DNA from: Candidatus Multivoradales bacterium
GTDB lineage: Bacteria > Acidobacteriota > Thermoanaerobaculia > Multivoradales > Multivoraceae
DNA length: 64,000 bases
Direction: 5' to 3'
NCBI GenBank assembly: GCA_965223325.1
Contig: CBDCWI010000002.1
Location: 4,320,001 to 4,384,000, forward strand
In this document: positions 11,849-50,845 of the stretch, in pieces
How positions within the stretch are numbered: position 1 is the stretch's first letter
How the letters are laid out: each line of letters begins with the position of its first letter
Made by a program: the position numbers and the translations under genes
The notes under the pieces: generated by a model
Told to the model about the DNA's origin: nothing
What the model saw: only the letters and a program-made list of their open reading frames with translations
Databases searched by the model: none

Positions 11849-14218
11849 TTGTCGACCAGAACGCAGTTCGGGCCGGCCCCCACGGCCGACCCGCGGTTTC
11901 CCAGAATCACCCCAGTCGTTTCCCAGTCGATTGCCCGGGAGTTGCCCGGGTCTTGGCGGGCGGCTGCGGTGTCTCTGGTTGTCGGGAGCCTCTTGCTTGC
12001 GGGAGCACCCCTCGGGGCGCTCGAGCGAGGGGACCTGTGCGAGCACCTGCGCGGTGGGCGTTCACCCTATTTTGGGCGGGCCTTCCTGGATGAGATCCGG
12101 GCCGCGCTCGACGCCTCTTCCGACCCTGCGGAGGAGTCTGGCTATCGGGGTCTCCTCGGTGCCGAGCTGCTCAAGCACGGCCAACTCGACGAGGCGCTCG
12201 AGTTGCTCGAACAGGCAAAGCGCGAGATCGCCACCCAGGAGCGCAGCGACGGCCTGGCATCTTCCGTCGATTGGCATCTCGCGCTGGCCCACCTACGCCT
12301 GGCCGAGCAGCAGAACTGTGTCGGTCACCGCAGTGCGGCGAGCTGCATCCTGCCAATCCGGAAAGATGCAGTTCATACCCTGCCAGAACACAGCCGGAGA
12401 GCCGGTGACCTCTTTGCGGCCTATGCGAAGGAGCATCCGCGCAACATTCAAGCGGTATGGCTGCTCAATGTAGCCCGCCGGGTTGCCGGCCAGTTTCCCG
12501 ACGGTGTACCGGCCCCTTTGCGCATCACCGATGAGCAACTGACTGCGGATGGCGCTGCGTTCGCTTATTGGACCGATCGTGGTCCGGAGCTCGGCCTGTC
12601 GACGCTCGATCTTGCAGGTGGCGCAATCATGGACGACTTCGACGGTGATGGCCACCTCGACCTGGTGAGTTCGACCTGGGATCCGTGCGGTGGACTGGCG
12701 GCGTTTCGAAACAACGGGACCGGCGGCTTTGAAGACGTGACGGATCTCTGGGGTCTGGCTGATCTGGCAGGTGGGCTGAATCTGGTCCATGGCGATGTCG
12801 ATGGTGACGGCTGGCTCGACTTGCTGGTCTTGCGCGGTGCCTGGCTGCTGGCCGACGGCCAGATCCCGAACACCCTGCTGCGCAACCGTGGCCCTCTTTC
12901 GACTGCGGCCGGCGACGTCCACAAACGTTTCGAAGACATCACGGCGACAGCCGGCCTGGAGGAACCGGGCTACCCGACGGCCAGTGCCGCCTTTGCAGAC
13001 TTTGACGGTGACGGCGACCTGGATCTCTTCGTTGGCAACGAGGCGACGAAAGCCTCGTCCTATCCGTCGCAGTTGTTTCAAAACGATGGCCGAGGTCGTT
13101 TCATGGACATCGCCTCTTCATCAGGGGTCTCGAACCTGCGCTACTCCAAGGGTGTCGCCTGGGGCGACTTCGACGAAGACGGTGACCCGGACCTCTACGT
13201 CTCGAACTTCGGCGAGAACCGCCTCTACCGAAACGACGGTGCCACGCCTTCCGGCGACGGGTGGCAGTTCGTCGACGTCGCACCGGAGCTCGGTGTGGTG
13301 GCTCCGCGGGTCGAGAGCTTTGCGTCCTGGTTCTTCGACTACGACAACGATGGCGACCTCGACCTGTTCGTGGCCGACTACCGCTCGCAGGCGGCGCGGG
13401 TGACCGCGTCCTACTTTGGCATGGCGACTCCCGAGGGGCAGCCGCTGCTCTACCAGAATCAGTTCAGCGAAACCGGTAGCGCCTCGTTTCGTGAAGTGAG
13501 TCGAAGCGTTGGGCTTGTACGTCCGGCGATGCCGATGGGCGCCAACTATGGTGACCTCGACAACGACGGCTGGCTGGACATCTACCTCGGCACTGGCGAA
13601 CCAGACCTCGCCAGCCTGATGCCCAATGTCATGTATCGCAACACCGGCGGGCGCTTCGTCGACATCACGATGGCGGGCGGCTTTGGACACCTGCAGAAGG
13701 GGCATGGCGTAGCCCTTGGTGACCTCGATCACGACGGGGATCAAGACCTGTTCCACCAGCTCGGCGGCTTCTACCCAGGCGACCGCTTCGGCAACGCCCT
13801 GTTCGAGAACCCGACTGCCAACCCGCGTGAGGCGGCCGGCGCGGGAAGGAACCGGTTCTTGACGTTGCACTTCGAAGGTCGGCGTGCAAACCGCTTCGCT
13901 CTCGGCGCACGCGTAGAGATCGTCGTGCTCGATGCGGCCACGCCCGCGGTTCCACGGTCGATTCATCTGCTCGTCGGTGCCGGCGGTTCGTTCGGGGGCT
14001 CGAGCCTGCGCCAGGAGGTCGGTCTCGGCAAGGCGACCCAGGTGCGCGAAGTCATCGTGCGCTGGCCCGGTTCTGGCGTCGTCGATCGATTTCGCGACCT
14101 CGAACTCGATCGTGTCTACTTGCTGCGTGAAGGTGGATCCAGCGCGACCGAGGGCGCCGCCGCTCCCGAGGGTGCCGTCGCGCTCGTCGTCACTCCGTTT
14201 CGATTGGGTGGCGACTGA
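11849..14218 (+). CDS. CRTAC1/ASPIC-UnbV family FG-GAP repeat protein
   Basis: Many DxDxDGxxD repeats; C-terminal NRFALGARVE..GGSFG..EVGLG..VRWP (UnbV/ASPIC). Start uncertain. Confidence 0.9.
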   Translation: MSTRTQFGPAPTADPRFPRITPVVSQSIARELPGSWRAAAVSLVVGSLLLAGAPLGALERGDLCEHLRGGRSPYFGRAFLDEIRAALDASSDPAEESGYRGLLGAELLKHGQLDEALELLEQAKREIATQERSDGLASSVDWHLALAHLRLAEQQNCVGHRSAASCILPIRKDAVHTLPEHSRRAGDLFAAYAKEHPRNIQAVWLLNVARRVAGQFPDGVPAPLRITDEQLTADGAAFAYWTDRGPELGLSTLDLAGGAIMDDFDGDGHLDLVSSTWDPCGGLAAFRNNGTGGFEDVTDLWGLADLAGGLNLVHGDVDGDGWLDLLVLRGAWLLADGQIPNTLLRNRGPLSTAAGDVHKRFEDITATAGLEEPGYPTASAAFADFDGDGDLDLFVGNEATKASSYPSQLFQNDGRGRFMDIASSSGVSNLRYSKGVAWGDFDEDGDPDLYVSNFGENRLYRNDGATPSGDGWQFVDVAPELGVVAPRVESFASWFFDYDNDGDLDLFVADYRSQAARVTASYFGMATPEGQPLLYQNQFSETGSASFREVSRSVGLVRPAMPMGANYGDLDNDGWLDIYLGTGEPDLASLMPNVMYRNTGGRFVDITMAGGFGHLQKGHGVALGDLDHDGDQDLFHQLGGFYPGDRFGNALFENPTANPREAAGAGRNRFLTLHFEGRRANRFALGARVEIVVLDAATPAVPRSIHLLVGAGGSFGGSSLRQEVGLGKATQVREVIVRWPGSGVVDRFRDLELDRVYLLREGGSSATEGAAAPEGAVALVVTPFRLGGD

Positions 14219-15957
14219 TGCCGGCGTTCTTCCTACAGCGTGCTTTGTGCGCGCTGGTCCTCTCTGGGTTTCTGGGGCTTGGGCCAGTGGTGGCACAAGA
14301 CGCCCCGCGAGCACCGTGGTTCCTTGATCGGACCGAGGCCAGCGGCATCGACTTTGCGCATTGGAACGGGATGTCGGGACGGCTCTACTACCTCGAGATC
14401 GTCGGTGCGGGCGGCGCCCTCTTCGACTACGACGGCGATGGCGATCTCGACCTCTTTCTCGTGCAGGGTGCCCTCTTGGGGCCCGACCGCACCTTCGACG
14501 ATGCGACGATTCCCTGGCGCGGAGCGGGCCCGCCCCGCGACACCCTCTGGCGCAACGAAAGCACGGCCGATGGCCTACAATTCGTCGACGTCACCGAGGC
14601 CTCGGGCATCGACTCGAGGAGCTACGGCATGGGCGCGGTCGCCGGCGACATCGACAACGATGGCGACGTGGATCTCTACCTCCTCAACTTTGGCGCCAAC
14701 CAACTGTGGCGCAACGAGGGTGGCGGACAGTTCGTCGACGCCACGGAGGCAGCGGGCCTCACCGAGCCGCGGTGGAGTGTTTCGGGAAGCCTCGCGGACT
14801 ACGACAATGACGGTGACCTCGACCTCTACGTTGTGAACTATCTCGACTACAGTTTCATTGGTCACAAGAGCTGCCTCACCGAGCGCGGCGAGCCCGACTA
14901 CTGCCTGCCGAGCGCCTACAGTCCGGTCGCCGACGGTCTCTATCGCAACCGCGGTGACGGGACCTTCGAAGATGTCAGCCAGGCGGCGGGCATCAGCTCG
15001 GCACCGGGTAATGGGCTCGGAGTCATCAGTGCCGACTTCGACTCGAACGGCGCAGTCGACTTCTACGTCGCCAACGACCTCATGGCCAACAATCTCTGGC
15101 TCAACCAAAAAGACGGCACCTTCGTTGACGAGGGCCTGCTCTCGGGTGTCGCGTTGAACCGCCTCGGCGAGGCCGAAGCGAGCATGGGGATCGCCGCTGG
15201 TGATCCCGACGCTGATGGCGACCTCGATCTCTTCGTGACCCACTTTCGCCGCGAGAGCAATACCTACTATCGACAGCGACGCTCGCTCGAGTGGGTCGAC
15301 GCGACCGACTCCGTGGAACTGGGCGCGCCGAGTTGGTTGTTCACTGCCTTTGGAACGGCCTTCATCGACTTCGACCTCGACGGTTGGCTCGACCTGGTGT
15401 CCGCCAACGGAGCCGTGACCTTCGTTCCAGGCGCTGACCGATCGGCTAGCGCACTCCCTCTGGACGAGACCAACCAGCTGTTTCGCAATCGCGGTGACGG
15501 ACAGTTCGAAGAGGTCACCCAGGCGCTCGGTGGGAGAGCCTTCGAGGTCTCGGGCATAAGCCGCGGTGCCCTGCACGGTGATCTCGATAACGACGGCGAT
15601 ACCGACCTGGTGATCACCGGCAACAGCGGTCCGGTCCAGGTCCTCCTGAACACCAACATCTCTGCGCCGTCACGCGCCTGGGTTGGTGTGCACCCGGTGA
15701 TCAGGACAGGGGCTGGCAGCAAGCGAACCGCGTTGGGTGCGCAGGTCGAGAGCACCTGGGGCCAGCGCACCCTGGTCCGCCGCGTCCAGCGTGACGGTGG
15801 CTATGCGACCAGCTCGGATCCGCGGGTGGTCCTGCCGGTGGCAGCCGGAGCCGAGCGGGCGTCGATCGTTGTGATCTGGCCCAACGGCCAGCGCGAGACG
15901 TTCACCGATCTCGAACCAGGGCGGTATCACGAGCTCGTCATGGCAGAGACGCCGTAG
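14218..15957 (+). CDS. CRTAC1/ASPIC-UnbV family FG-GAP repeat protein
   Basis: FDYDGDGDLDL repeats, ASMGIAAGD, SRGALHGDLDNDGDTD, GGYATSSDPR; TGATG overlap with upstream gene. Confidence 0.92.
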   Translation: MPAFFLQRALCALVLSGFLGLGPVVAQDAPRAPWFLDRTEASGIDFAHWNGMSGRLYYLEIVGAGGALFDYDGDGDLDLFLVQGALLGPDRTFDDATIPWRGAGPPRDTLWRNESTADGLQFVDVTEASGIDSRSYGMGAVAGDIDNDGDVDLYLLNFGANQLWRNEGGGQFVDATEAAGLTEPRWSVSGSLADYDNDGDLDLYVVNYLDYSFIGHKSCLTERGEPDYCLPSAYSPVADGLYRNRGDGTFEDVSQAAGISSAPGNGLGVISADFDSNGAVDFYVANDLMANNLWLNQKDGTFVDEGLLSGVALNRLGEAEASMGIAAGDPDADGDLDLFVTHFRRESNTYYRQRRSLEWVDATDSVELGAPSWLFTAFGTAFIDFDLDGWLDLVSANGAVTFVPGADRSASALPLDETNQLFRNRGDGQFEEVTQALGGRAFEVSGISRGALHGDLDNDGDTDLVITGNSGPVQVLLNTNISAPSRAWVGVHPVIRTGAGSKRTALGAQVESTWGQRTLVRRVQRDGGYATSSDPRVVLPVAAGAERASIVVIWPNGQRETFTDLEPGRYHELVMAETP

Positions 15958-18600: not shown

Positions 18601-21171
18601 ATGTTCTCGTTGCTTCAGATGATCCCGAGAGGATCATCGACTTGCCCCCGCACGGTCGCCCTCGTCGTGGCCGTCCTACTCCTGCTGCTCAGTGCGCTGC
18701 CGGTTGGTGCACAACAGTCCATCGCCAGCCGCGCTATCGACGGTACGCCCAACTTCTGGAAGGGTGACCTGGGCCGGGTCGCGCCGCTGGTTGGCGAACC
18801 GGGCACCCGCGAAACCGACGCCGACTTCGAAGCCAGTGTGACGGCGTTCATCCACCAGTTCGTTGCGGAGAACCTGGGCGCCAGCGGGACCGAGGAGCTC
18901 CGCATCACCGATGTCGAGAAGGATGCGCTCGGCAACGCCCACGTTCGATTCGAAGAGTTCATCGGCGGACTCAGGGTCTTTGGCGCAGCACTCATGGTGC
19001 ATTCGGACGCTCTATCCGGCGTCGTGAGGGTGGTCAACGGTGACTTCGCCTCCGCGGCCGGAGTTCCCGACGCGGCGGCGCTCGATGCGCGTCGAGCGAT
19101 GCTCATGGCGATGAGCGAACTCGACGGCCAGGATGCCCATCGCATTGGCGGGCCGCGCCTTGGCTACGTCATCGCTCCTTCGGGCGAGGTCTTTTTGACC
19201 TGGAGACAGCTGGTCGAGTACGAGAAGGACGACTTCTTTCATCGCGATCTGCTGTTTGCGGATGCACAGACCGGTTCCCTGATCACCCGTCATCCGACGA
19301 TTCATCCGGTCAAGTCGTGGCGCACATACAACGGTCGTTCCTTGTCGTCACTGCCTGGAACGCTCGACTGCACCAACGACCAGTCTTGTTCGGACCAGGT
19401 GATTCAAGACGCGCACGACAACGCCGGCCTCGTGTGGGACTACTACAACGCCCAGTTCGGTCGCGATTCCCTCAACGACAACGGCTTCACGCTCATTTCG
19501 ACGGCGCATCACAGGAACAACTACAACAACGCCTTCTGGAACGGTTCTCAGATGGCCTACGGTGACGGCGACGGCGTGTTGTTCTCTCCGCTCGGAAGTG
19601 GCTTCGATGTTGTTGCGCATGAGCTGACCCACGGTGTGACGTCCTTCGAGTCCGACTTGATCTACCAGAACGAGTCAGGCGCTCTCAATGAGGCGCTCTC
19701 TGACATCTTTTCGGCAGCGGCTGAGGCCTGGCGTGACGGTGCGATCACCGACGACACCTGGAAGCTCGGCGAGGACATCTACACCCCGGCGACCGCTGGC
19801 GACGCGCTGCGCTACATGGACGACCCCACCGACGACGGTTCTTCCTACGACTACTGGCCGGAGCGCTACACCGGCAGTCAAGACAACGGTGGCGTGCACT
19901 GGAACTCTGGGATCGCCAACCTCGCCTTCTACCTGATGGTCGAAGGTGGAACGCACCCGCGCGGTAAGACCAGCGTCTCGGTTACCGGTTTTGGGATGGA
20001 CAAGGCGGAGCAGATCTTCTACCGCGCCCAGACCACCTATCTGACGGCGTCGTCGAACTTCGCTGCGGCGCGTGCCGCGACCGCCCAGGCTGCCGGGGAT
20101 CTCTACGGCGCGGCCGAGCAACAAACTGTCCACGACGCGTGGTGCGCTGTTGGGGTGCCGAACTGTCCGACGGATCCGCCCGATCCACCGTCAGGCGGTG
20201 AGCTCACCAAGGGTGTTGCGAAGACCGGCCTGTCGGGATCGACTAGCGATACCAAGTTCTTCTTCATCGACGTTCCGGCGAACGCGCAGGATCTGGTCTT
20301 CACCATGAGTGGCGGCTCTGGCGATGCCGACCTCTACGTGCGTCGCGGTTCTGAGCCAACAACAACCACGTACGATTGTCGGCCCTACAACAGCGGCAAC
20401 TCAGAGACCTGTTCCTTCGACGATCCCAGCGCGGCGCGCTATCACGTGATGGTGCGCGCCTACCGGACGTACTCCGGAGTGTCTCTCGTTGCCGACTACG
20501 AGACGGTGACGGATCCTCCCGATCCACCAGCGAGCAGTGAACTCGAGAACGGTGTCCCGCGCAGTGATCTCGACGGTGATCGGCTCAGTCAGCAGTTCTT
20601 CACCATCGAGGTTCCGACCAACGCGCGCGATCTCGCGGTGCAGTTGTCTGGGGGCTCCGGAGATGCAGACCTGTATCTGCGTCGTGGTTCCAAACCAACC
20701 ACCTCGAGCTACGACTGCCGTCCCTACAAGATTGGCAACAACGAGCTCTGTGAAGTGGCAGACCCGCAGGCCGGTACCTGGCACGTGATGCTGCGCGGCT
20801 ATTCGTCGTTCTCGAACACCACTCTGGTGGCGACCTGGGAGGACGGCGGTGATCCACCGGCCGGCTGCGACCCGCAGGTGGGGAGCGTTTCGGACCTGTC
20901 CGACTTCACAGGGGGCCAGAAGGTCTACACCTTCGAGGTCGACGATTGCGCCGAGCTGCTCGAGGTGACCATCTCGGGCGGGTCCGGGGACGCCGACCTG
21001 TACGTGCGCTTTGGGAGCCCACCGACGACGTCGAACTACCAGTGCCGCCCCTACAAGAGTGGCAACAACGAGTCCTGTGAGTTCGATGATCCACAGGCCG
21101 GCACCTGGTACCTGATGGTACGGGCTTACCGGACCTACAGTGGAGTGGACCTCGAGGCTAAGTACGAGTAA
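18601..21171 (+). CDS. M4 (thermolysin-like) metalloprotease with three C-terminal PPC domains
   Basis: NAFWNG, HELTH, GALNEALSD, GGVHWNSGIAN; three GGSGDADLYVR PPC repeats; RBS GGAGGAG before ATG 18601. Confidence 0.95.
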   Translation: MFSLLQMIPRGSSTCPRTVALVVAVLLLLLSALPVGAQQSIASRAIDGTPNFWKGDLGRVAPLVGEPGTRETDADFEASVTAFIHQFVAENLGASGTEELRITDVEKDALGNAHVRFEEFIGGLRVFGAALMVHSDALSGVVRVVNGDFASAAGVPDAAALDARRAMLMAMSELDGQDAHRIGGPRLGYVIAPSGEVFLTWRQLVEYEKDDFFHRDLLFADAQTGSLITRHPTIHPVKSWRTYNGRSLSSLPGTLDCTNDQSCSDQVIQDAHDNAGLVWDYYNAQFGRDSLNDNGFTLISTAHHRNNYNNAFWNGSQMAYGDGDGVLFSPLGSGFDVVAHELTHGVTSFESDLIYQNESGALNEALSDIFSAAAEAWRDGAITDDTWKLGEDIYTPATAGDALRYMDDPTDDGSSYDYWPERYTGSQDNGGVHWNSGIANLAFYLMVEGGTHPRGKTSVSVTGFGMDKAEQIFYRAQTTYLTASSNFAAARAATAQAAGDLYGAAEQQTVHDAWCAVGVPNCPTDPPDPPSGGELTKGVAKTGLSGSTSDTKFFFIDVPANAQDLVFTMSGGSGDADLYVRRGSEPTTTTYDCRPYNSGNSETCSFDDPSAARYHVMVRAYRTYSGVSLVADYETVTDPPDPPASSELENGVPRSDLDGDRLSQQFFTIEVPTNARDLAVQLSGGSGDADLYLRRGSKPTTSSYDCRPYKIGNNELCEVADPQAGTWHVMLRGYSSFSNTTLVATWEDGGDPPAGCDPQVGSVSDLSDFTGGQKVYTFEVDDCAELLEVTISGGSGDADLYVRFGSPPTTSNYQCRPYKSGNNESCEFDDPQAGTWYLMVRAYRTYSGVDLEAKYE

Positions 21172-33598: not shown

Positions 33599-33739
33599 TA
33601 CGACCCATCCGCCCTGTGGCTAGCCCGGTGTTGAGTTCCATCGTGGTCAGGAATCCGCGGCGCGCGCCAAGCGAGCGAAGGTCGACGCCATTTCGTCAAC
33701 GCGACGTGGTTGGCAAGGGGCCGCGCTGCGGGACGCTTG
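33599..33739 (+). repeat. Diverged member of the 284-bp repeat family (5' exon of intron copy 1; continues about 35650-35686)
   Basis: Same ordered motifs as the array unit: TAyGACC...GTCA, GAATCCG..GGCGCGCGCCmAGCGA, CCGCGCTnCGGnnCGCTTG|CGCCG, GGrGyCGTGGTAACG. Confidence 0.55.
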
Positions 33740-35649
33740 GATACGCCGGGATAAACCGGCATGGAGAAAGGAATGAGAGAGTCCCACCCTCGAAGGGGTA
33801 GCGACCCAGAGGGTCCCCGAGTCATGCGCCGGCTCCCGCGAGGGTGCGGTGAAGCGTTGACAGGGGCACACACAGGCCGGGTATTGAGCCGCGAAATAAG
33901 AATTTGGGAGTGCCGACGCTGTCAAGCGAAGCGGAAGGCGAGACTCCGTAGCGCGCTATCGCGAGCTCTGCGGCGACTCCCCGCGGTCGTAGACCCTGTG
34001 CATGTGTGGAATCTCCATGCGCGAGAACCGGGAGATCCGCGATCTGGCCAGTTGGGTATCTGGTCCGCATCGGGAAGGCTAGAGGCCGTAAGCCGATGAC
34101 GCACGGATGGCGGAAGTCAGACAGGCCCGTAGTACCTGCGAAGTCGTCGAACAACGGTGGGAGACCAGCGGCGGAGGCGGTGGAGGGAAGGGGCCTGGCC
34201 AAGGGGAACACGGGCAAGCAAAACGCACCCCGGACACAGAGCCGGATGGAGAGTGCGAGCAATGCGCTGGGCCGTGTACGAGAAGCCGCCCGCAGGGGCA
34301 AGGAAGTGAAGTTCACAGCGCTTCTTCACCACATCACGGTCGAGCGACTCCGGAGCGCATTTGACGTGTTGCACCGAGACGCAGCGGCAGGAGTGGACGG
34401 AGTGTCATGGAGCGAGTACGCAGAATCTTTGCTGAGCAATCTCGAGGACCTGCACTCTCGTGTCCACCGTGGGAGCTACCGGGCGAGTGCGACTCGTCGC
34501 GTCTACATCGAGAAATCGGATGGGCGGTTCCGACCGCTTGGCATCGCCACGTTGGAGGACAAGATCCTTCAGCGCGCCGTCGTCTCGGTGTTGGATGCGA
34601 TCTACGAGGAAGACTTTCTCGGGTACTCATACGGATTCAGGCGAGGCCGCAGCCAGCACGATGCTTTGGATGCGCTATTCGTTGGAATCACAAAGCGGAA
34701 GGTGAACTGGGTGCTCGACGCAGACATTCGTGGGTTCTTCGATGCCCTGGACCACGAGTGGCTGGTGAAGTTTCTCGAGCACCGTATCGGAGACCGTAGG
34801 ATCCTTCGCCTCATCCAGAAATGGCTGAGGTCCGGAGTGATGGAAGACGGTAAGTGGCACGCGAGCACGCGGGGGACTCCTCAGGGGGCGACGATTTCGC
34901 CTCTCCTCGGGAACGTGTACCTGCACTACGTGCTCGATCTCTGGGTCCAGCAGTGGAGGAAACGCAACGCGCTTGGGGACATGATCTTCGTGCGCTACGC
35001 GGATGACTTCATCGTTGGATTTGAGAGGCAGGAGGAGGCAGAACGATTCCTCGAGGAACTGAACCTGCGACTCCGTGACTTCTCGTTGGAGATCCAACCC
35101 GAGAAGACGCGCCTGCTGGAGTTTGGCCGCTTTGCGGCCTACAACCGACGCGCGCGAGGTCTCGGGCGGCCGGAGACCTTCGAGTTTCTAGGCTTTACGC
35201 ACTGCTGTGCGCAGTCTAGTCGAGGGAGGTTCTTGCTGAAGCGCATCACGAGCCGCCACCGAATCCGCAGGACACTGAAGGCTGTCGGTACGGCCCTTCT
35301 GGGACACCGACACTCGCCGCTACCAGAGCAAGGTCTCTGGCTGGGATCCGTGGTGCGAGGCTTCAATGCCTACTACGGCGTACCCGGCAACTCAGCGGCG
35401 TTGAACGCCTTTCGACAGGAGGTCATTCGGCACTGGATGCGCGCTCTGCGCCGACGCAGTGACAAAGACCGCACGTCCTGGAAACGGATGTGGGCCCTGG
35501 TGGCCCACTACCTACCCAAAGCCCGAGTCCAACATCCCTGGCCTGATGAGCGACTTGTCGTCAATACCTGAGGCAGGAGCCCAGTGCATTAGCAGTGCAC
35601 GCTGGGATCTGTGCGGGGGGCGCCGGGCAACCGGCGCTCCTACCGCGAT
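33740..35649 (+). mobile_element. Group II intron, copy 1 (IIB-like, resembles bacterial class E; 1,910 nt)
   Basis: RT ORF. Domain V GAGCCCAGTGCATTAGCAGTGCACGCTGGGATC (AGC triad); domain VI hairpin with A at -8; ends AT. EBS1 CAAGCG (33923-33928) is complementary to exon CGCTTG (33734-33739). Class assignment is from memory of family features. Confidence 0.95.
34096..35571 (+). CDS. ltrA: Group II intron reverse transcriptase/maturase (no HNH endonuclease domain)
   Basis: AAGVDG, RPLGI..EDKI.Q, SYGFR.GRS.HDA, DADIRGFFD, GTPQG, RYADD, TFEFLGF; ends HPWPDERL. Confidence 0.97.
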   Translation: MTHGWRKSDRPVVPAKSSNNGGRPAAEAVEGRGLAKGNTGKQNAPRTQSRMESASNALGRVREAARRGKEVKFTALLHHITVERLRSAFDVLHRDAAAGVDGVSWSEYAESLLSNLEDLHSRVHRGSYRASATRRVYIEKSDGRFRPLGIATLEDKILQRAVVSVLDAIYEEDFLGYSYGFRRGRSQHDALDALFVGITKRKVNWVLDADIRGFFDALDHEWLVKFLEHRIGDRRILRLIQKWLRSGVMEDGKWHASTRGTPQGATISPLLGNVYLHYVLDLWVQQWRKRNALGDMIFVRYADDFIVGFERQEEAERFLEELNLRLRDFSLEIQPEKTRLLEFGRFAAYNRRARGLGRPETFEFLGFTHCCAQSSRGRFLLKRITSRHRIRRTLKAVGTALLGHRHSPLPEQGLWLGSVVRGFNAYYGVPGNSAALNAFRQEVIRHWMRALRRRSDKDRTSWKRMWALVAHYLPKARVQHPWPDERLVVNT

Positions 35650-35777
35650 CGCCGCAAGAGTGATGAGTAGCGGAGCCGTGGTAACGCCTTTTCGAGGTCG
35701 AAGAAGCGGCAACTCCGGGCCGTCAACGAGTCACCGAAGAGGCCCTTCTGGCAGAGGCCGCAAAACCACGGCCCCCG

Positions 35778-36566
35778 CTACAAGAAGCCGAAGATCGCGA
35801 CGAAGTGGATCGCTGCGCCGACGAGGCCGAAGACGTGCCAGACCGTGTGGCCGTAGGGCAGGTTGTGCCATAGATAGAAGGCTCCGCCAAGGGTGTAGGC
35901 CAGGCCGCCGGCGAGGAACAGGGTCCAGGCCATTGGGGGCAGGGCAGCGGTAGCAGTGGGATACACCAGAAAGATGCTCCAACCCAGAGCGGCGTACGAA
36001 CCAACACACCAGCGCCGGTGCCAGACGCTGCTGCAGTGGTGTTTCCGGGTCACCAGCTTGAGGACGATCCCGGTGGCGGCGGCACTCCACACGGCACCCA
36101 ACAGGGGGACACCCACCGAGTGGTCGAGCCCGAGCAGGCAGAAGGGGGTGTAGGTACCGGCGATGAAGAGGTAGATCGCACAGTGATCGACGACCTGAAA
36201 AAGGGCACGGCGGGCCGGCTGAAGCTCGGCATGAAAGAGGGTCGAGGCAAGAAAGAGAAGAACCAGTGTGGCGCAATACAAAGCGCTGGCCGCAAAGGGA
36301 AGCAGAGACGTTTCGTAGGCGAGCCGAGTGAGCACCAGGCCCGAGGCGCCAGCGGCGGCGACCAGCCCGGCGGCATGGGTGACGATCTCAGCGAGGTCCT
36401 CGGTCGGTCGCCGGCGCGGGCGTGCGCTGGCCTTCTTCTTGGGGGCCTCCACCCTGATGGTTCGAGCGTCGACGGCGAGGCCTGTCTCGCTGGCCCGCCG
36501 GACTCTCTGACCGCCGAGCGTGGTGCGTGCGGGGATTGGTAGCAGGGTAACTTCGGTGGTGGACAT
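35778..36566 (-). CDS. Hemolysin III / PAQR family membrane protein
   Basis: STLFH, DHCAIYLFIAGTYTPF, GGLAYTLG, HTVWHVF. Confidence 0.93.
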   Translation of the reverse strand: MSTTEVTLLPIPARTTLGGQRVRRASETGLAVDARTIRVEAPKKKASARPRRRPTEDLAEIVTHAAGLVAAAGASGLVLTRLAYETSLLPFAASALYCATLVLLFLASTLFHAELQPARRALFQVVDHCAIYLFIAGTYTPFCLLGLDHSVGVPLLGAVWSAAATGIVLKLVTRKHHCSSVWHRRWCVGSYAALGWSIFLVYPTATAALPPMAWTLFLAGGLAYTLGGAFYLWHNLPYGHTVWHVFGLVGAAIHFVAIFGFL

Positions 36567-44501: not shown

Positions 44502-46137
44502 CGCGACGGACGGCGAAGGCGCGGTCGATGGCGTTCATGTGCTCGATGCGCAGGTTGCTGCCAGCCTGGATGGTTTCACCGAGCTCCATGTAGGCCTCAC
44601 TCTCGGGTGTGAAGGCCGGCCACTCCGGGAAACCATCGCCGTTCGGGTTGCCCGTCCTGGCGAAGCGCACCCAGAGATCGGCGATGGTCTCGGAGAACTC
44701 CTCGTCGGCCTCGGTCGGTTCGGCGCCGAAGAGCGTCAGGTCGCCAAAGACATAGCCGAGCTCGCCAGCATGAAAGGCGCCGAGGTCGGTGTCACCCGGG
44801 ACCGGCGGGCTCCAGGTGAAGTAGTACAAGTAGGCCGGGCTGCTGGCATTTGCCATGCCGCGTGCCCAGGCGCGCTGCGGATAGGCGAACAGTACGTCAC
44901 TGAAGAGATCGATCCAGGCGCGGCGCGCCTCATCGTCGCCCACCGGGTAGAGCACCTTCGCCTCGTCTCCGAGTTCAGGAAGGGTCATTGCCAGGTAGCG
45001 CTCGAAGCCGACGTTGCCGGCGCCGAGAGCGGTGGCGAGGTAAGGCAACAGGGTCGACCCCTCATCGGCGTTGGAGCCGGTCATGACTGGAACGTCACTC
45101 TGGTCTCCGGCGGCGAAGATCTCGGCGACTTCCCTGGGGATCGCATGGCCGTCGACGATGGCCAGTCCTTCGTAGGCGGCGAACGGCTGAAACGCCTCGA
45201 GCACCCTGGCGGGATCCTGGGCGCGCAGCGCGGCGAGCGATGCCTCCGCTTCACCATCGTCGGCGGCTGGCAGGAGCGCCTTTGTAAACTCCTCGCCTCG
45301 CGCCTCGGCCGAGGGAGTCCAGCTGGTTGCCTCGGTACGGTGAACCATGGGTTGGAACGAGCCACCGCTTTGTCCGATGGCGCGATGGAACATCCCCTTG
45401 GCAAGCGGCGAGGCCTGCACCAGCGAAACGCTGAGTGCACCAGCAGACTCTCCGAAGATGGTGATGTTGTCCGGGTCTCCGCCGAAGGCCGAAATGTTGT
45501 TGCGCGTCCACTCGAGTGCCTTGATCTGGTCGAGAATGCCCTGGTTGCCGGAGGTGCCGTGCGGGCTTTCGGCCGACAGTTCGGGGTGCGCCAGGAAGCC
45601 GAAGGCACCGAGGCGGTAGTTGATCGTCACCAGCACGACGCCCTTCTTGGTGAGCAGGTCGCCTCGATAGTCGCCGCCGCTACCCGCCGTCAGACCGCCG
45701 CCGTGAATCCAGAACATCACCGGCAGGCGGTCGTCTTGCGAGGTGGCGCGCGACCAGACGTTGAGCGTCAAGCAGTCTTCTGAGACCGCGCTGTACGACT
45801 GGTTGTAGAAGCCGCCGTCAGGGCCCGCCAGCTGCTGACACGCAGCGCCGACCTCGGTGGCACTGCGCGTACCCTCCCAGGCGACGACTGGTTGCGGTTC
45901 GCGCCAGCGGAGCGCGCCGACCGGGGGGGCTGCATAGGGAATACCGAACCAGACGGGTGTTCCGTCGGCACTCGTCGTACCAACGATGGCGCCGCCGGTT
46001 ACCGCGATTTCAGCAGTGATACCAGTCGCCGTCTGGTCAGCACCGGTCTCGTTCATGTCGCAAGCCGCGAGGGTAGAGATCAAGAGCAGAAGCAAAGTGG
46101 GAAGAGCAACGTTCCTGAAAAGGGTGAACAACGCCAT
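44491..46137 (-). CDS. Type B carboxylesterase lipoprotein
   Basis: Lipobox LAAC, GIPYAAPPVG.LRW, SEDCLTLNVW, HGGG, FGESAG, FHAGEL. Confidence 0.95.
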   Translation of the reverse strand: MALFTLFRNVALPTLLLLLISTLAACDMNETGADQTATGITAEIAVTGGAIVGTTSADGTPVWFGIPYAAPPVGALRWREPQPVVAWEGTRSATEVGAACQQLAGPDGGFYNQSYSAVSEDCLTLNVWSRATSQDDRLPVMFWIHGGGLTAGSGGDYRGDLLTKKGVVLVTINYRLGAFGFLAHPELSAESPHGTSGNQGILDQIKALEWTRNNISAFGGDPDNITIFGESAGALSVSLVQASPLAKGMFHRAIGQSGGSFQPMVHRTEATSWTPSAEARGEEFTKALLPAADDGEAEASLAALRAQDPARVLEAFQPFAAYEGLAIVDGHAIPREVAEIFAAGDQSDVPVMTGSNADEGSTLLPYLATALGAGNVGFERYLAMTLPELGDEAKVLYPVGDDEARRAWIDLFSDVLFAYPQRAWARGMANASSPAYLYYFTWSPPVPGDTDLGAFHAGELGYVFGDLTLFGAEPTEADEEFSETIADLWVRFARTGNPNGDGFPEWPAFTPESEAYMELGETIQAGSNLRIEHMNAIDRAFAVRRGAS

Positions 46138-46315
46138 GGGTTGGCCTCCTTGGCACCGCTGGGCGATCGCCTCAGGACCAGAGAGCGCAAAGACTCACGG
46201 TCCGCCGCAGCGGCTCAGGTTGTTTCAAAAAGGGGGGGACGGGCGGAATCTTATCGGAGGTCCCGCCGGGCCCCAGCCGCAACTCTTGAGGTTCAAGGCC
46301 CGTAGAAGGTCTTCA

Positions 46316-46984
46316 ATGCGAGGAATCGAGCAGATCCCATGGTGCTACGACACTTTGATGGGAATCTCCGAGCGCACCGGTCTCGGACGTTGGCGCCGCT
46401 GGCTCACCTCCGGCAGCCAGGGACAAGTCCTCGAAGTCGGCAGCGGCACCGGCCGCAACCTGCCGCTCTACCCCGGCGACGCCAAAGTCATCGGCCTCGA
46501 GCCCGCCTTCGCATCACTCCTCGCAGCCCGCAAGAAGTCCCCCGATACCCGCCTCGTCCTCGGCAGCGCCGAAGACCTGCCCTTCAGACCGAACAGCTTC
46601 GACACCGTCGTCTCCGGCCTGGTCTTCTGCAGCGTCCCCGACCCCATGCGCGGCCTCTCCGAAGTCGCCCGAGTCCTCCGCCCAAGCGGCACCCTGCGCA
46701 TGTTGGAGCACGTCCGCGCCAAGAGCCACTGGGGAGGAAGATTCCAGGACCTCATTCTGCCCCCCTGGAAATTCGTCACCGGCGGCTGTCACCTCAACCG
46801 TGACACCGAAGCCAACGTAAGAAACGCCGGCTTCCAGATCCAGCCCGACCGGAAAGAAGACGGCTCCCTACGCTGCTTCAGCGCAGTTCCGCCGCGCGAG
46901 GTGAGTCGCGATCGAGTCCAAGCCGAGGGCCGTATGACCCCGTTGACGCCGCCTCGGGGCAACGGCCTGCAGCTCGGGTTGTAG
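46316..46984 (+). CDS. Class I SAM-dependent methyltransferase (METTL7-like); last ~20 aa read from repeat unit 1
   Basis: VLEVGSGTG, FDTVV..LVFCSVPDP, RVLRPSG..LEHV, GGCHLNRDT; TAG lies inside the repeat. Confidence 0.92.
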   Translation: MRGIEQIPWCYDTLMGISERTGLGRWRRWLTSGSQGQVLEVGSGTGRNLPLYPGDAKVIGLEPAFASLLAARKKSPDTRLVLGSAEDLPFRPNSFDTVVSGLVFCSVPDPMRGLSEVARVLRPSGTLRMLEHVRAKSHWGGRFQDLILPPWKFVTGGCHLNRDTEANVRNAGFQIQPDRKEDGSLRCFSAVPPREVSRDRVQAEGRMTPLTPPRGNGLQLGL

Positions 46985-47652
46985 CCGTAGAATCCGAGTA
47001 GGCGCGCGCCCAGCGACTCGCAGTCGTTCGCCGCGTGTACAGGGCGGCCTCCCGGCGCCGTCGGCCCGCGCTTCGGACCGCTTGCGCCGTCCCCCTTGAG
47101 GGGGTACCAGGGGGTGAGGTGACATTGATTGGGGTCGTGGTAACGACGGATCGCGCTCGCGAGATCGCCTCTCTCTACCAACAGCCTCACCCAAGCCGAG
47201 CGCGATACGAGGGCCGTATGACCCCGTTGACGCCGCCTCGGGGCAACGGCCTGCAGCTCGGGTTGTAGCCGTAGAATCCGAGTAGGCGCGCGCCCAGCGA
47301 CTCGCAGTCGTTCGCCGCGTGTACAGGGCGGCCTCCCGGCGCCGTCGGCCCGCGCTTCGGACCGCTTGCGCCGTCCCCCTTGAGGGGGTACCAGGGGGTG
47401 AGGTGACATTGATTGGGGTCGTGGTAACGACGGATCGCGCTCGCGAGATCGCCTCTCTCTACCAACAGCCTCACCCAAGCCGAGCGCGATACGAGGGCCG
47501 TATGACCACGTTGACGTCGCGTTTCGGGAACTGTGAACCCATCAAGTCATAGCCGTAGAATCCGAGTAGGCGCGCGCCCAGCGACTCGCAGTCGTTCGCC
47601 GCGTGTACAGGGCGGCCTCCCGGCGCCGTCGGCCCGCGCTTCGGACCGCTTG

Positions 47653-49562
47653 GATACGCCGGGATAAACCGGCATGGAGAAAGGAATGAGAGAGTCCCAC
47701 CCTCGAAGGGGTAGCGACCCAGAGGGTCCCCGAGTCATGCGCCGGCTCCCGCGAGGGTGCGGTGAAGCGTTGACAGGGGCACACACAGGCCGGGTATTGA
47801 GCCGCGAAATAAGAATTTGGGAGTGCCGACGCTGTCAAGCGAAGCGGAAGGCGAGACTCCGTAGCGCGCTATCGCGAGCTCTGCGGCGACTCCCCGCGGT
47901 CGTAGACCCTGTGCATGTGTGGAATCTCCATGCGCGAGAACCGGGAGATCCGCGATCTGGCCAGTTGGGTATCTGGTCCGCATCGGGAAGGCTAGAGGCC
48001 GTAAGCCGATGACGCACGGATGGCGGAAGTCAGACAGGCCCGTAGTACCTGCGAAGTCGTCGAACAACGGTGGGAGACCAGCGGCGGAGGCGGTGGAGGG
48101 AAGGGGCCTGGCCAAGGGGAACACGGGCAAGCAAAACGCACCCCGGACACAGAGCCGGATGGAGAGTGCGAGCAATGCGCTGGGCCGTGTACGAGAAGCC
48201 GCCCGCAGGGGCAAGGAAGTGAAGTTCACAGCGCTTCTTCACCACATCACGGTCGAGCGACTCCGGAGCGCATTTGACGTGTTGCACCGAGACGCAGCGG
48301 CAGGAGTGGACGGAGTGTCATGGAGCGAGTACGCAGAATCTTTGCTGAGCAATCTCGAGGACCTGCACTCTCGTGTCCACCGTGGGAGCTACCGGGCGAG
48401 TGCGACTCGTCGCGTCTACATCGAGAAATCGGATGGGCGGTTCCGACCGCTTGGCATCGCCACGTTGGAGGACAAGATCCTTCAGCGCGCCGTCGTCTCG
48501 GTGTTGGATGCGATCTACGAGGAAGACTTTCTCGGGTACTCATACGGATTCAGGCGAGGCCGCAGCCAGCACGATGCTTTGGATGCGCTATTCGTTGGAA
48601 TCACAAAGCGGAAGGTGAACTGGGTGCTCGACGCAGACATTCGTGGGTTCTTCGATGCCCTGGACCACGAGTGGCTGGTGAAGTTTCTCGAGCACCGTAT
48701 CGGAGACCGTAGGATCCTTCGCCTCATCCAGAAATGGCTGAGGTCCGGAGTGATGGAAGACGGTAAGTGGCACGCGAGCACGCGGGGGACTCCTCAGGGG
48801 GCGACGATTTCGCCTCTCCTCGGGAACGTGTACCTGCACTACGTGCTCGATCTCTGGGTCCAGCAGTGGAGGAAACGCAACGCGCTTGGGGACATGATCT
48901 TCGTGCGCTACGCGGATGACTTCATCGTTGGATTTGAGAGGCAGGAGGAGGCAGAACGATTCCTCGAGGAACTGAACCTGCGACTCCGTGACTTCTCGTT
49001 GGAGATCCAACCCGAGAAGACGCGCCTGCTGGAGTTTGGCCGCTTTGCGGCCTACAACCGACGCGCGCGAGGTCTCGGGCGGCCGGAGACCTTCGAGTTT
49101 CTAGGCTTTACGCACTGCTGTGCGCAGTCTAGTCGAGGGAGGTTCTTGCTGAAGCGCATCACGAGCCGCCACCGAATCCGCAGGACACTGAAGGCTGTCG
49201 GTACGGCCCTTCTGGGACACCGACACTCGCCGCTACCAGAGCAAGGTCTCTGGCTGGGATCCGTGGTGCGAGGCTTCAATGCCTACTACGGCGTACCCGG
49301 CAACTCAGCGGCGTTGAACGCCTTTCGACAGGAGGTCATTCGGCACTGGATGCGCGCTCTGCGCCGACGCAGTGACAAAGACCGCACGTCCTGGAAACGG
49401 ATGTGGGCCCTGGTGGCCCACTACCTACCCAAAGCCCGAGTCCAACATCCCTGGCCTGATGAGCGACTTGTCGTCAATACCTGAGGCAGGAGCCCAGTGC
49501 ATTAGCAGTGCACGCTGGGATCTGTGCGGGGGGCGCCGGGCAACCGGCGCTCCTACCGCGAT
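47653..49562 (+). mobile_element. Group II intron, copy 2 (apparently identical to copy 1, offset 13,913 nt)
   Basis: All internal ORF translations match copy 1. Boundaries are fixed by comparison with intact repeat units (GACCGCTTG|CGCCGTCCCC). Confidence 0.96.
48009..49484 (+). CDS. ltrA: Group II intron reverse transcriptase/maturase
   Basis: Protein identical to 34096..35571; RYADD. Confidence 0.97.
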   Translation: MTHGWRKSDRPVVPAKSSNNGGRPAAEAVEGRGLAKGNTGKQNAPRTQSRMESASNALGRVREAARRGKEVKFTALLHHITVERLRSAFDVLHRDAAAGVDGVSWSEYAESLLSNLEDLHSRVHRGSYRASATRRVYIEKSDGRFRPLGIATLEDKILQRAVVSVLDAIYEEDFLGYSYGFRRGRSQHDALDALFVGITKRKVNWVLDADIRGFFDALDHEWLVKFLEHRIGDRRILRLIQKWLRSGVMEDGKWHASTRGTPQGATISPLLGNVYLHYVLDLWVQQWRKRNALGDMIFVRYADDFIVGFERQEEAERFLEELNLRLRDFSLEIQPEKTRLLEFGRFAAYNRRARGLGRPETFEFLGFTHCCAQSSRGRFLLKRITSRHRIRRTLKAVGTALLGHRHSPLPEQGLWLGSVVRGFNAYYGVPGNSAALNAFRQEVIRHWMRALRRRSDKDRTSWKRMWALVAHYLPKARVQHPWPDERLVVNT

Positions 49563-49801
49563 CGCCGTCCCCCTTGAGGGGGTACCAGGGGGTGAGGTGA
49601 CATTGATTGGGGTCGTGGTAACGACGGATCGCGCTCGCGAGATCGCCTCTCTCTACCAACAGCCTCACCTTGAGGGGGTACCAGGGGGTGAGGTGACATT
49701 GATTGGGGTCGTGGTAACGACGGATCGCGCTCGCGAGATCGCCTCTCTCTACCAACAGAGGGCCGAGTAGGCGCGCGCCCAGCGTATGACCACGACCCCA
49801 A

Positions 49802-50845
49802 TCAATACCTGAAAGGCCAAAGCCGAAAATAATCCTTCACATTCCGCCACAACTTCGCCAACCCCTCCGGCTCTAGAATCAAGAACAACACAATCACCAA
49901 CCCAAAGACTCCCTGCTGTACGAACGGCAACTTCGCAGCGAGAAGTGGCGCCGTGTCTTGCATCGCCCGGCCCATGGTCGAAATGAACGCCGGCAGAAGC
50001 ACAATCAGAGTGGCCCCGAAGAAGCTGCCGTTGATCGTGCCGAGGCCGCCGATGATGATCATCGCCAGGTAGAGAATGCTGGTCTCGATCGTGAACCGCT
50101 CCCAGGTGACGATCGTTCGGTAGTGCGCCAACATCGCACCCGCCAGCCCGACGACGAAACTCGAGGTCGCGAAGGCCAGGAGCTTGTAACCAAAGACGTT
50201 GACGCCGATGGCAGAGGCCGCGATGTCTTGATCGCGAATCGCAACGAACGCCCGGCCGACGCGCGACCGGAAGAGATTGGCAGTGGCCAAGGCGACCAGG
50301 CAAGCGACACCGACCGCGATCCAATAGAACTCGAAGTCACCGTTCACCCGCATGCCGGCCAGTTCTGGTGCCGGCACGACCAGCGCTTCGGTGCCGCCGG
50401 TAAGCGCTGTCCAGTGGGTGATCACCCACTCGACGATCTGTTGAGCGGCCAGGGTTGCGATGGCCAGGTAGAGGCCCTTCAGGCGCAGGCTCGGCAGGCC
50501 GAAGAAGAGCCCTATGAGAGCAGTCAGGAGGGCCGCTGCCGGAATGCTGAGGAAGAAGGGCCAGTCGAAGCGGGCGGTGAGGATTCCAGAACTGTAGGCA
50601 CCGATGGCGAGAAAGGCACCCTGCCCGAGGCTGATCTGACCGGTATAGCCAACCAGGATGTTGAGGCCCAGCGCACCGATGGTCGCTAGAGCGATCTGGT
50701 TGGCGAGGGTGAGCCAGTAGTTGCTGGCGACGAACGGAAAGGCAACCAGAAACACTCCGAACAGGGCCAGGCGCACCTTCTCGAGCGGCAAGCGGCGCAG
50801 CGACATGTCGCGGCGATAGGTTTCGAAGAACGTTCCAGATTGCAT
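49802..50845 (-). CDS. LIV-type ABC transporter permease (LivM-like)
   Basis: GLNILVGYTGQISLGQ, LRLKGLYLAIATLA, GRAFVAIRD, IIGGLG. Confidence 0.95.
   Translation of the reverse strand: MQSGTFFETYRRDMSLRRLPLEKVRLALFGVFLVAFPFVASNYWLTLANQIALATIGALGLNILVGYTGQISLGQGAFLAIGAYSSGILTARFDWPFFLSIPAAALLTALIGLFFGLPSLRLKGLYLAIATLAAQQIVEWVITHWTALTGGTEALVVPAPELAGMRVNGDFEFYWIAVGVACLVALATANLFRSRVGRAFVAIRDQDIAASAIGVNVFGYKLLAFATSSFVVGLAGAMLAHYRTIVTWERFTIETSILYLAMIIIGGLGTINGSFFGATLIVLLPAFISTMGRAMQDTAPLLAAKLPFVQQGVFGLVIVLFLILEPEGLAKLWRNVKDYFRLWPFRY

Follow-up and report, generated by a model that had tools for sequence, protein, structure and literature searches.

What is the 284-bp tandem array on the plus strand between positions 46924 and 47652 of the window (the whole 64,000-nucleotide stretch of DNA from Candidatus Multivoradales bacterium analyzed here), and why do its nearly identical units differ in one 33-nt block of equal length? 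An original prediction, made from the letters of the DNA, took the units for a structured scaffold with an exchangeable insert in a 33-nt slot. The insert would belong to a guide- or spacer-like RNA or to an element resembling a REPIN, an inverted pair of repetitive extragenic palindromes (REPs), with the slot as its variable loop. Our work demonstrated that the observation behind this proposal is real and that the exchangeable-insert reading and the stem proposed for it are not supported. The slot is the seam between head-to-tail copies of an element and not a programmable insert; the units are non-coding, and their conservation is at the nucleotide level. The 284-bp units are probably copies of a non-coding repeat of about 250 to 300 nt, seen so far in this genome only. 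Its anatomy, the covariation of its helices, its anchoring on stop codons, the fixed breakpoint within its arrays, and the site at which it receives a group II intron are direct observations. The array has the following parts.

46924 to 47652, plus strand: tandem array of partial unit 0, units 1 and 2, and the 5′ 172 nt of unit 3 (Tandem Repeats Finder [TRF], BLAST, and a repeat search)

46949 to 46981, plus strand: slot A, first copy, at the junction of partial unit 0 and unit 1 (exact 33-nt match)

47233 to 47265, plus strand: slot A, second copy, at the junction of units 1 and 2, after GACCCCG-TTGACG (exact match, predicted fold)

47517 to 47549, plus strand: slot B, at the junction of units 2 and 3, after the family-typical GACCACG-TTGACG (exact match, family alignment)

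47653 to 49562, plus strand: group II intron of 1,910 nt between G47652 and C49563, within the 3′ strand of helix P1

49563 to 49669, plus strand: rest of unit 3 (unit positions 173 to 279), 100% identical over 107 nt (BLAST)

49670 to 49758, plus strand: further partial copy with one more 5′ arm of helix P2 and part of its loop (TRF, BLAST)

The period and the identity of units 1 and 2 were confirmed by TRF (period 284, 2.6 copies, 95% matches at 46924 to 47652) and by BLAST of unit 2 against the genome, which aligned 46924 to 47196 with 47208 to 47480 at 100% over 273 nt. An ungapped comparison of unit 3 with unit 2 also bore out the description of unit 3 as one base change plus a block of equal length. 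It gave 19 mismatches; one is C47224 versus A47508, and the remaining 18 all lie inside 47233 to 47265 versus 47517 to 47549. That 18 of 19 mismatches should fall by chance within a single 33-nt stretch, given roughly 279 positions in the alignment, has a probability of the order of 1e−13 (a binomial figure from hand arithmetic, with no tool). The two slot versions differ at 18 of their 33 bases and agree at 15, against a mean of 9.0 for random 33-mers of this genome (P = 0.022 for at least 15). An exact 33-nt search found slot A twice and slot B once. Both versions are present with zero differences in short-read contigs from runs X1, X2, and X4, which come from one study and may be the source of the assembly itself. 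The array was also thought to end at 47652. Instead, the intron splits unit 3, which resumes at 49563 and is followed by a partial copy that gives a 96-nt period spanning 49572 to 49758 in TRF.

The window array is one of many. The genome (6.69 Mb, two contigs, 64% G+C) contains 68 tandem arrays with a period of at least 100, and BLAST links 38 of them into one family with unit lengths of 163 to 325 nt. Units are 93 to 100% alike within one array, and only conserved blocks are common between arrays. An iterated nhmmer search seeded with the unit center recovered a 51-nt core in 128 copies, of which 104 fall into 34 of these arrays, and a hidden Markov model of the whole unit had 180 matches in the genome. 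The other 30 arrays with a period of at least 100 fall outside the family, and most of these are unrelated to one another.

Read on the plus strand, the element begins with a left end (consensus GTTCCATCGAAGCC..GAATCC), followed by a conserved domain (about 90 nt, with helix P1 closing it), a GTGAC spacer, and hairpin P2; GTGGTAAC is a sequence block of the element. In the RNAalifold consensus, the P1 strand GCGGCGCGCG pairs with CGC-TT-GCGCCGC, and 5 of the 9 pairs show compensatory changes in an alignment of 39 diverse copies. P2 was found by inspecting single copies, in which 18 nt ending in CGTGGT stand just 3′ of the conserved GTGAC. Its 5′ arm, (G/C)TAG-N7-CGTGGT, and its 3′ arm, ACCACG-N7-CTA(G/C), enclose a loop of about 80 nt. 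The inverted copy of the arm lies 76 to 82 nt downstream in 42 of 46 copies, and a loop of 3 to 4 nt is found in 2 of the 46. RNAalifold gave no convincing further structure within the P1 domain or the P2 loop. In the window the two helices, and a second family locus, are located as follows.

47001 to 47088, plus strand: P1 domain of unit 1, with the 5′ strand GGCGCGCG at 47001 to 47008 and the 3′ strand CGC-TT-GCGCC at 47079 to 47088

47124 to 47141, plus strand: P2 5′ arm of unit 1, ATTGATTGGGGTCGTGGT, with copies also at 47408 to 47425, 49602 to 49619, and 49698 to 49715

49789 to 49806, plus strand: the sole P2 3′ arm of the array, ACCACGACCCCAATCAAT, fully complementary to the 5′ arm

33638 (approximate start) to 35782, plus strand: second family locus with a diverged left end, the 5′ part of P1, an intron, and the P2 arms

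The P1 domain is found again in unit 2, 284 nt further along, and in unit 3 the intron interrupts it. P2 is a helix of 17 bp, with positions 2 to 18 each Watson-Crick paired in 44 to 47 of 47 complete copies (43 distinct arms) and with three to four pair types at each of positions 2 to 13. The arms of one copy match each other at 17.2 of 18 positions, whereas arms combined from different copies match at 11.0. The non-canonical pairs read on the plus strand are 13 G-T and 2 C-A. Arm positions 3 to 5 are T, A, and G in 42, 38, and 38 of the 47 copies, of which 39 have C or G at position 2. A promoter reading of GTGAC..TGGTAA was considered and rejected, the second block having turned out to be the inner part of P2.

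Both helices covary, and neither is the stem that the original prediction had drawn between an upstream TATGAC and the end of the slot. The slot A version of that stem (TATGAC/GTTGTA) is unused in the minimum-energy fold (−38 kcal/mol, z −3.2), in which the slot pairs with both flanks instead. The slot B version (TATGAC/GTCATA) does form in the predicted fold, but this fold (−14.6 kcal/mol, z +1.0) is no better than that of shuffled sequence. A “diverged copy” had further been reported at 33599 to 33649. It is the left part of the second family member, which is itself split at 33740 to 35649 by an intron identical to that of the array. Its P2 arms, read by eye, lie at 35665 to 35682 (5′) and 35765 to 35782 (3′).

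Where in the genome does the element sit? Of the 46 complete copies, 38 carry in the outer arm of P2 the stop codon of an opposite-strand open frame that is at least 100 codons long. These stops are 32 TAG, 4 TGA, and 2 TAA, at an offset of 13 in 29 copies. TAG is thus over-represented at the element, since genome-wide it ends only 1,762 of 5,110 long open frames. Moreover, the arm tracks the type of stop: copies on TAG carry (G/C)TAG in both arms, the two copies on TAA carry TAA, and the window array carries TGA. At the second locus, the CTA at 35778 to 35780, within the outer arm, is the TAG stop of an open reading frame (ORF) on the minus strand (35778 to 36566). The array in turn meets a convergent gene.

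49802 to 50845, minus strand: branched-chain amino-acid transporter permease gene, convergent with the array (Pfam BPD_transp_2, 148.9 bits)

The TCA at 49802 to 49804 in ACCACGACCCCAATCAAT is the TGA stop of this gene and forms the foot of P2. The permease orthologues in the relatives G007 and G003 have the same final residue (..WPFSY), and at another site of the element five relatives all end at ..FIYFQF, with unrelated DNA after the stop. Because the orthologues end at the same residue, we conclude that the natural stop position has been kept and that the element begins on it. Perfect short hairpins number 46 genome-wide, and the only 3 that hug stop codons are all members of the element family; the genome thus has no separate large class of such hairpins.

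A hairpin was also noticed behind the permease orthologue of G007 (C1). It is a perfect 15-bp hairpin, TGAATTCTGGGGTGG / CCACCCCAGAATTCA, that starts on the TGA of this gene and has arms like those of P2 in the window. Its motif has one site in G007, as searched with a narrow pattern only.

The arrays break at a fixed point. In 21 of 28 arrays the full 3′ arm is confined to the gene-proximal last unit. Among the others, internal units also have an outer arm in 2, the last motif copy is split by an intron in 4 (the window array is such a case), and the arm is absent in 1. Internal units break after ACCACG, whereupon an array-specific junction leads into the left end of the next unit. This junction is usually identical within one array and measures 0 to about 110 nt across arrays. 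In the window two junctions have the order GACCCCG-TTGACG, slot A, TAGCCGTAGAATCC, and one has GACCACG-TTGACG, slot B, TAGCCGTAGAATCC. The place of the 33-nt slot, after a truncated arm and before the next left end, identifies it as a seam between two copies. Its constant length, from which the idea of an insert had been drawn, is not a property of the family; variable lengths among other copies, which the original prediction had itself listed as evidence to the contrary, are what the other arrays show.

Slot B retains ACCACG and the left-end-like CCATCAAG (family consensus CCATCGAAG). In the predicted fold of slot A, the lone substitution outside the slot, ACCACG to ACCCCG, pairs with CGGGG inside it. 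Slot B is probably the older form and slot A a remodeled seam, and the unit carrying A was then probably duplicated; we infer the order B before A. Neither 33-mer has a donor elsewhere in the genome or any match there beyond the chance level of 16 to 17 nt. Since the slots lack genome matches, the length of the junction varies, and the proposed stem is unsupported, the idea of a guide or spacer is left without support.

We hypothesize that an array starts with a nick, or with a template switch during replication, at the hairpin, followed by unequal recombination. The whole element would be re-copied together with a stretch of its upstream flank, each new copy joining directly after the ACCACG of the 3′ arm. 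The gene-proximal copy alone would therefore keep the complete hairpin, and each seam would be specific to its array. The element itself would be selfish mobile DNA of the REP/REPIN kind.

The interruption of unit 3 is a group II intron. Rfam RF02005 matched 47691 to 47909 with 180.6 bits (gathering cutoff, 49), and an identical match lies at 33778 to 33996. The intron contains the following ORF.

47919 to 49484, plus strand: ORF of the intron-encoded protein (Pfam RVT_1, 133.7 bits, residues 168 to 398, the sole Pfam match)

No endonuclease or maturase domain was detected in this protein with Pfam. The flanks of the intron join into an intact unit in BLAST and, because unit 3 resumes at 49563 with 100% identity, the insert comprises exactly 47653 to 49562; domains V and VI were seen by eye only. 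Exact copies of the 24-nt 5′ end of the intron number 14 in the genome, and the 24-mer spanning its 3′ junction is present 13 times. Twelve of the 14 introns have 5′ junctions that follow the family motif CAGGGC...CCGCTTG, the 13th (window position 33739) lies in the diverged family copy, and the 14th shows GCGCTTG only. All 14 are inserted in the orientation of the element and antisense to the neighboring gene, and the insertion point, ..CCGCTTG|CGCCG, falls between G and C of the P1 3′ strand. As 13 of 14 intron copies sit in family copies, the element is the homing site of this intron.

The intron was also encountered outside the assembly. Run X5, from another study and under another organism label, contains it (window positions 47642 to 49565) at low depth, and its flanks there are identical or similar to two further family loci of the present genome. 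That run probably includes DNA of this organism or of one very close to it.

How far does the element extend beyond this genome? A covariance model (R1, 138 conserved positions) found it in 0 of 40 relatives, including one of the same genus. When species-representative genomes were scanned with a pattern, the 42 single matches included no true member, the best scoring 26 bits, compared with 104 to 140 bits for the copies of this genome. The pattern scan of metagenomes gave 0 matches. The comparison with Rfam that the original prediction had proposed returned no family for the unit. At gathering score the matches in the whole window were the two introns only, and a search of 46800 to 47700 at an E-value of up to 10 gave just a 15-bit chance match.

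Upstream, the array has probably altered a neighboring reading frame; the neighbors examined were this ORF, the intron reverse transcriptase ORF, and the permease gene.

45986 to 46984, plus strand: methyltransferase ORF that enters the array and ends with the TAG directly after slot A

In homologues from five relatives the alignment ends about 45 residues before the end of this ORF, and its tail is therefore probably derived from the repeat. Two other kinds of repeat were seen in the window. Long ORFs at 12634 to 15627 contain many Asp-rich repeats of the DxDGDGDLD type (families D5 and D6), and three repeats of about 164 nt (family D4) lie at 20293 to 21122, spaced 339 and 327 nt apart and 64 to 73% identical.

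Taken together, these features best fit a REP/REPIN-like repeat that is anchored on stop codons, multiplies in tandem, and serves as host to a group II intron, and we consider this reading reasonably likely to be right. The REPIN-like option of the original prediction was thus in the right neighborhood, given the long hairpin, the (G/C)TAG foot, and the covarying arms, but its notion of the slot as the variable loop does not hold. Several points weigh against our reading. Of the 46 complete copies, 8 lack a long open frame ending in the arm; the same-genus genome gave no permease orthologue and, at the other site, a match of only 47% identity. The unit of 250 to 300 nt is ten times longer than a REP (20 to 40 nt) and longer than a REPIN (about 100 nt), it contains an additional conserved P1 domain of 90 nt, and its tag is paired with the other arm, whereas GTAG is unpaired in canonical REPs. 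The element could not be linked to any transposase: only 1 of 28 matches to the Y1_Tnp domain is less than 1 kb from a family copy (at 226 bp), and the sole RAYT-like gene (RAYT, REP-associated tyrosine transposase) is flanked by a different repeat. Six arrays, including that of the window, have dense, length-preserving patches of substitutions at positions that differ between arrays. Neither the patch in the slot nor those in the five other arrays have a donor in the genome. Inverted copying from nearby sequence, as in a template switch, was tested for both slots and did not reach significance (slot A, P = 0.057; slot B, P = 0.11). Finally, two covarying helices and an excess of plus-strand wobble pairs are what a functional RNA might show.

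Could the copies then be RNA elements with a job in the cell? They might act as 3′-end signals of the neighboring genes, that is, as terminator or stabilizer hairpins, or as multicopy small RNAs of the plus strand, antisense to the end of the gene, with the conserved P1 domain as a protein-binding handle and the variable parts setting specificity. Besides the helices and the wobble bias in P2, such a role would suit a hairpin that begins exactly on the stop codon, the similar hairpin on the TGA of the G007 orthologue, and the conservation of −35/−10-like blocks (GTGAC, 16 to 17 nt, TGGTAA), which were recognized by inspection and of which the second is also part of P2. However, a recent burst fits more than 100 copies here and 0 in 40 relatives better than a conserved function does. 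The internal units lack half of P2, inspection of both strands showed no U-run after P1 or P2, many arrays are situated between convergent genes, the copies stand behind unrelated genes, and Rfam has no match. We therefore regard a cellular role of this kind as possible but rather unlikely. A bolder proposal, to which we give still less credence, is a non-autonomous element that homes to stop codons with a guide of its own, choosing its landing site by base pairing. The internal arm, (G/C)TAG-N7-CGTGGT or its TGA and TAA variants, would read the stop codon and the preceding base, and the outer arm would be re-made from this guide at each insertion, the cut after ACCACG being the nick of the enzyme. 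The arrays would be run-ons of a rolling circle or of a reverse transcriptase, possibly the enzyme of the resident intron, and the dense length-preserving patches would be traces of the copying mechanism. We consider this proposal unlikely.

Three further explanations appear very improbable to us. Each unit might encode a small protein with a variable C terminus, like tandem precursor peptides. Indeed, plus-strand ORFs of 77 codons each (47035 to 47268 and 47319 to 47552) contain the slot in frame as their last 11 codons (33 nt), directly before TAG. However, the minus-strand frame across the unit is open as well, as all frames tend to be in DNA of 64% G+C; none of three ORFs across the unit has a Pfam match; and the period of 284 nt is not divisible by 3. 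Plus-strand coding was rejected because, in addition to the lack of a Pfam match, the frame is lost in homologous units of other arrays. Minus-strand coding, from a conserved ATG to a conserved ..YHG-stop, was rejected because few arrays keep the frame: among 19 arrays with both conserved blocks, the block spacing is of class 0 modulo 3 in 6, of class 1 in 4, of class 2 in 3, and mixed in 6. Indels of 1 nt occur between units of one array, and the conservation at the nucleotide level includes paired helices. An array of guide RNAs of the CRISPR or TIGR type, with a constant scaffold and an exchangeable 33-nt spacer, could draw on the two slot versions of equal length between identical flanks and on the dense length-preserving patches in 6 arrays. 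Such an array hardly accords with a total of two slot versions that have 15 of 33 bases in common and no match above 17 nt elsewhere in the genome, with junctions that are mostly identical within an array and range from 0 to about 110 nt between arrays, with patches at different places in different arrays, or with the ORFs examined beside the array, among which there is no nuclease or guide-using effector. Nor do we put much faith in integron gene cassettes, in the form of a cluster of attC sites lacking an integrase and an intron of the attC-targeting class C kind. The genome does contain an integron-integrase-family gene (422.7 bits with TIGR02249), the units do form an array of structured sites, and the intron targets a structured site and encodes a protein with no detected endonuclease domain. 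Yet some 560 kb separate the integrase-family gene from the array, and its own neighbors are a tRNA-like end and another repeat, of 134 bp. Inspection by eye showed no RYYYAAC ... GTTRRRY boxes on the flanks of the structured region, whole units are homologous between arrays while cassettes share their recombination site only, and the internal seams have no complete hairpin in 21 of 28 arrays.

The integrase-family gene (C2:3806467-3808190) is itself flanked by an apparent tRNA 3′ end. The tandem array next to it (134 bp, 3.3 copies) repeats this tRNA end.

The significance of a REP/REPIN-like repeat of this kind lies in its regularity. One genome carries more than 100 copies of a long structured repeat that sits on stop codons base for base, with an arm that tracks the kind of stop. 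The repeat grows into dozens of tandem arrays with a single fixed breakpoint and is the near-exclusive homing site of an intron (13 of 14 copies), which makes it a well-defined case for research on mobile DNA. Because its seams and arms are so regular, the mechanism of its copying should be inferable from sequence and testable, the candidates being a hairpin nick, a template switch, and reverse transcription. There is also a lesson for annotation: the element creates spurious ORFs and probably lengthens the methyltransferase ORF upstream of the array with repeat-derived sequence.

How does the element compare with known systems? Class C introns home behind terminator stem-loops or into integron attC sites. 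The resident intron resembles such structure-homing introns in its length of about 1.9 kb, in its reverse transcriptase with no detected endonuclease domain, and in occupying one position of a repeated structured site, in one orientation, in 13 of 14 copies. It differs in lying within a strand of the long-range helix P1 and not just after a hairpin. Class C targets are defined by a stem-loop in the 5′ exon plus a short IBS1, and the proteins of this class lack an endonuclease domain; membership of the present intron in class C is a possibility only. Group II introns usually start with GUGYG, whereas this one starts with GAUAC. An association of group II introns with REPs has a precedent in Pseudomonas putida, in which 2 of 9 intron copies lie at REPs according to Tobes and Pareja 2006 (PMC1525189).

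Integron attC arrays and clusters of attC sites lacking integrases (CALIN) are likewise arrays of structured, recombination-like sites. The arrays described here differ in showing no consensus of attC boxes, in the homology of their whole units, and in seams devoid of hairpins. The modular intergenic repeats known as BOX (boxA-(boxB)n-boxC, of pneumococci), ERIC (of enterobacteria), and Correia (of Neisseria) are similar in being composite structured repeats of 100 to 300 nt with no coding capacity and with internal modules that can be reiterated, and in lying near gene ends and in transcripts. They have no sequence relation to the element, and Rfam, which holds some such families, gave nothing. 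To our knowledge, neither anchoring on stop codons with a stop trinucleotide that covaries nor a set of 38 whole-unit arrays has been described for BOX, ERIC, or Correia.

REPs and REPINs are mobilized by RAYT tyrosine transposases, as Di Nocera et al. 2013 (PMC3733652) relate. The same authors describe a separate acidobacterial group of Y1 transposases that is flanked by long inverted repeats. The genome studied here has 28 matches to the Y1 transposase family (PF01797), and no RAYT flanked by the present repeats was found. Most of the 28 are nearly identical copies of an ORF of some 320 residues and cluster near the contig ends (C1:2.126-2.144 Mb and C2:4.455-4.487 Mb). The regions upstream of these ORFs carry repeated GTCGGGGGGACTTTCCC motifs, and the ends of the multicopy transposase copies have no likeness to the element. 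The single-copy RAYT-like gene (C1:1305966-1306784) has tandem 11-nt TTCCCGGGCG(C/T) repeats on both sides, and gene and repeats together look like a separate REP-like system.

The closest known kind of element is the cluster of GTAG-tagged REPs or REPINs, represented here with no cognate transposase found. A short P2 loop is confined to 2 of 46 complete copies. The arm subfamilies of the TGA and TAA types, each on the matching stop codon, and the loss of one arm at a fixed point by internal array units also set the present element apart. In the GTAG REPs described by Di Nocera et al. 2013 (PMC3733652), the stems covary between subfamilies with G-T pairs included, inverted dimers lie 20 to 100 bp apart, the termini often provide the TAG stop of flanking ORFs, and clusters include units tandemly reiterated with flanking DNA. 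Our element is, in the same way, an extragenic, high-copy palindrome with a (G/C)TAG foot and covarying arms that include G-T pairs. It likewise stands behind genes, its tag often being their TAG stop codon, forms clusters of units repeated together with flanking DNA, and has a patchy distribution that may be confined to one species.

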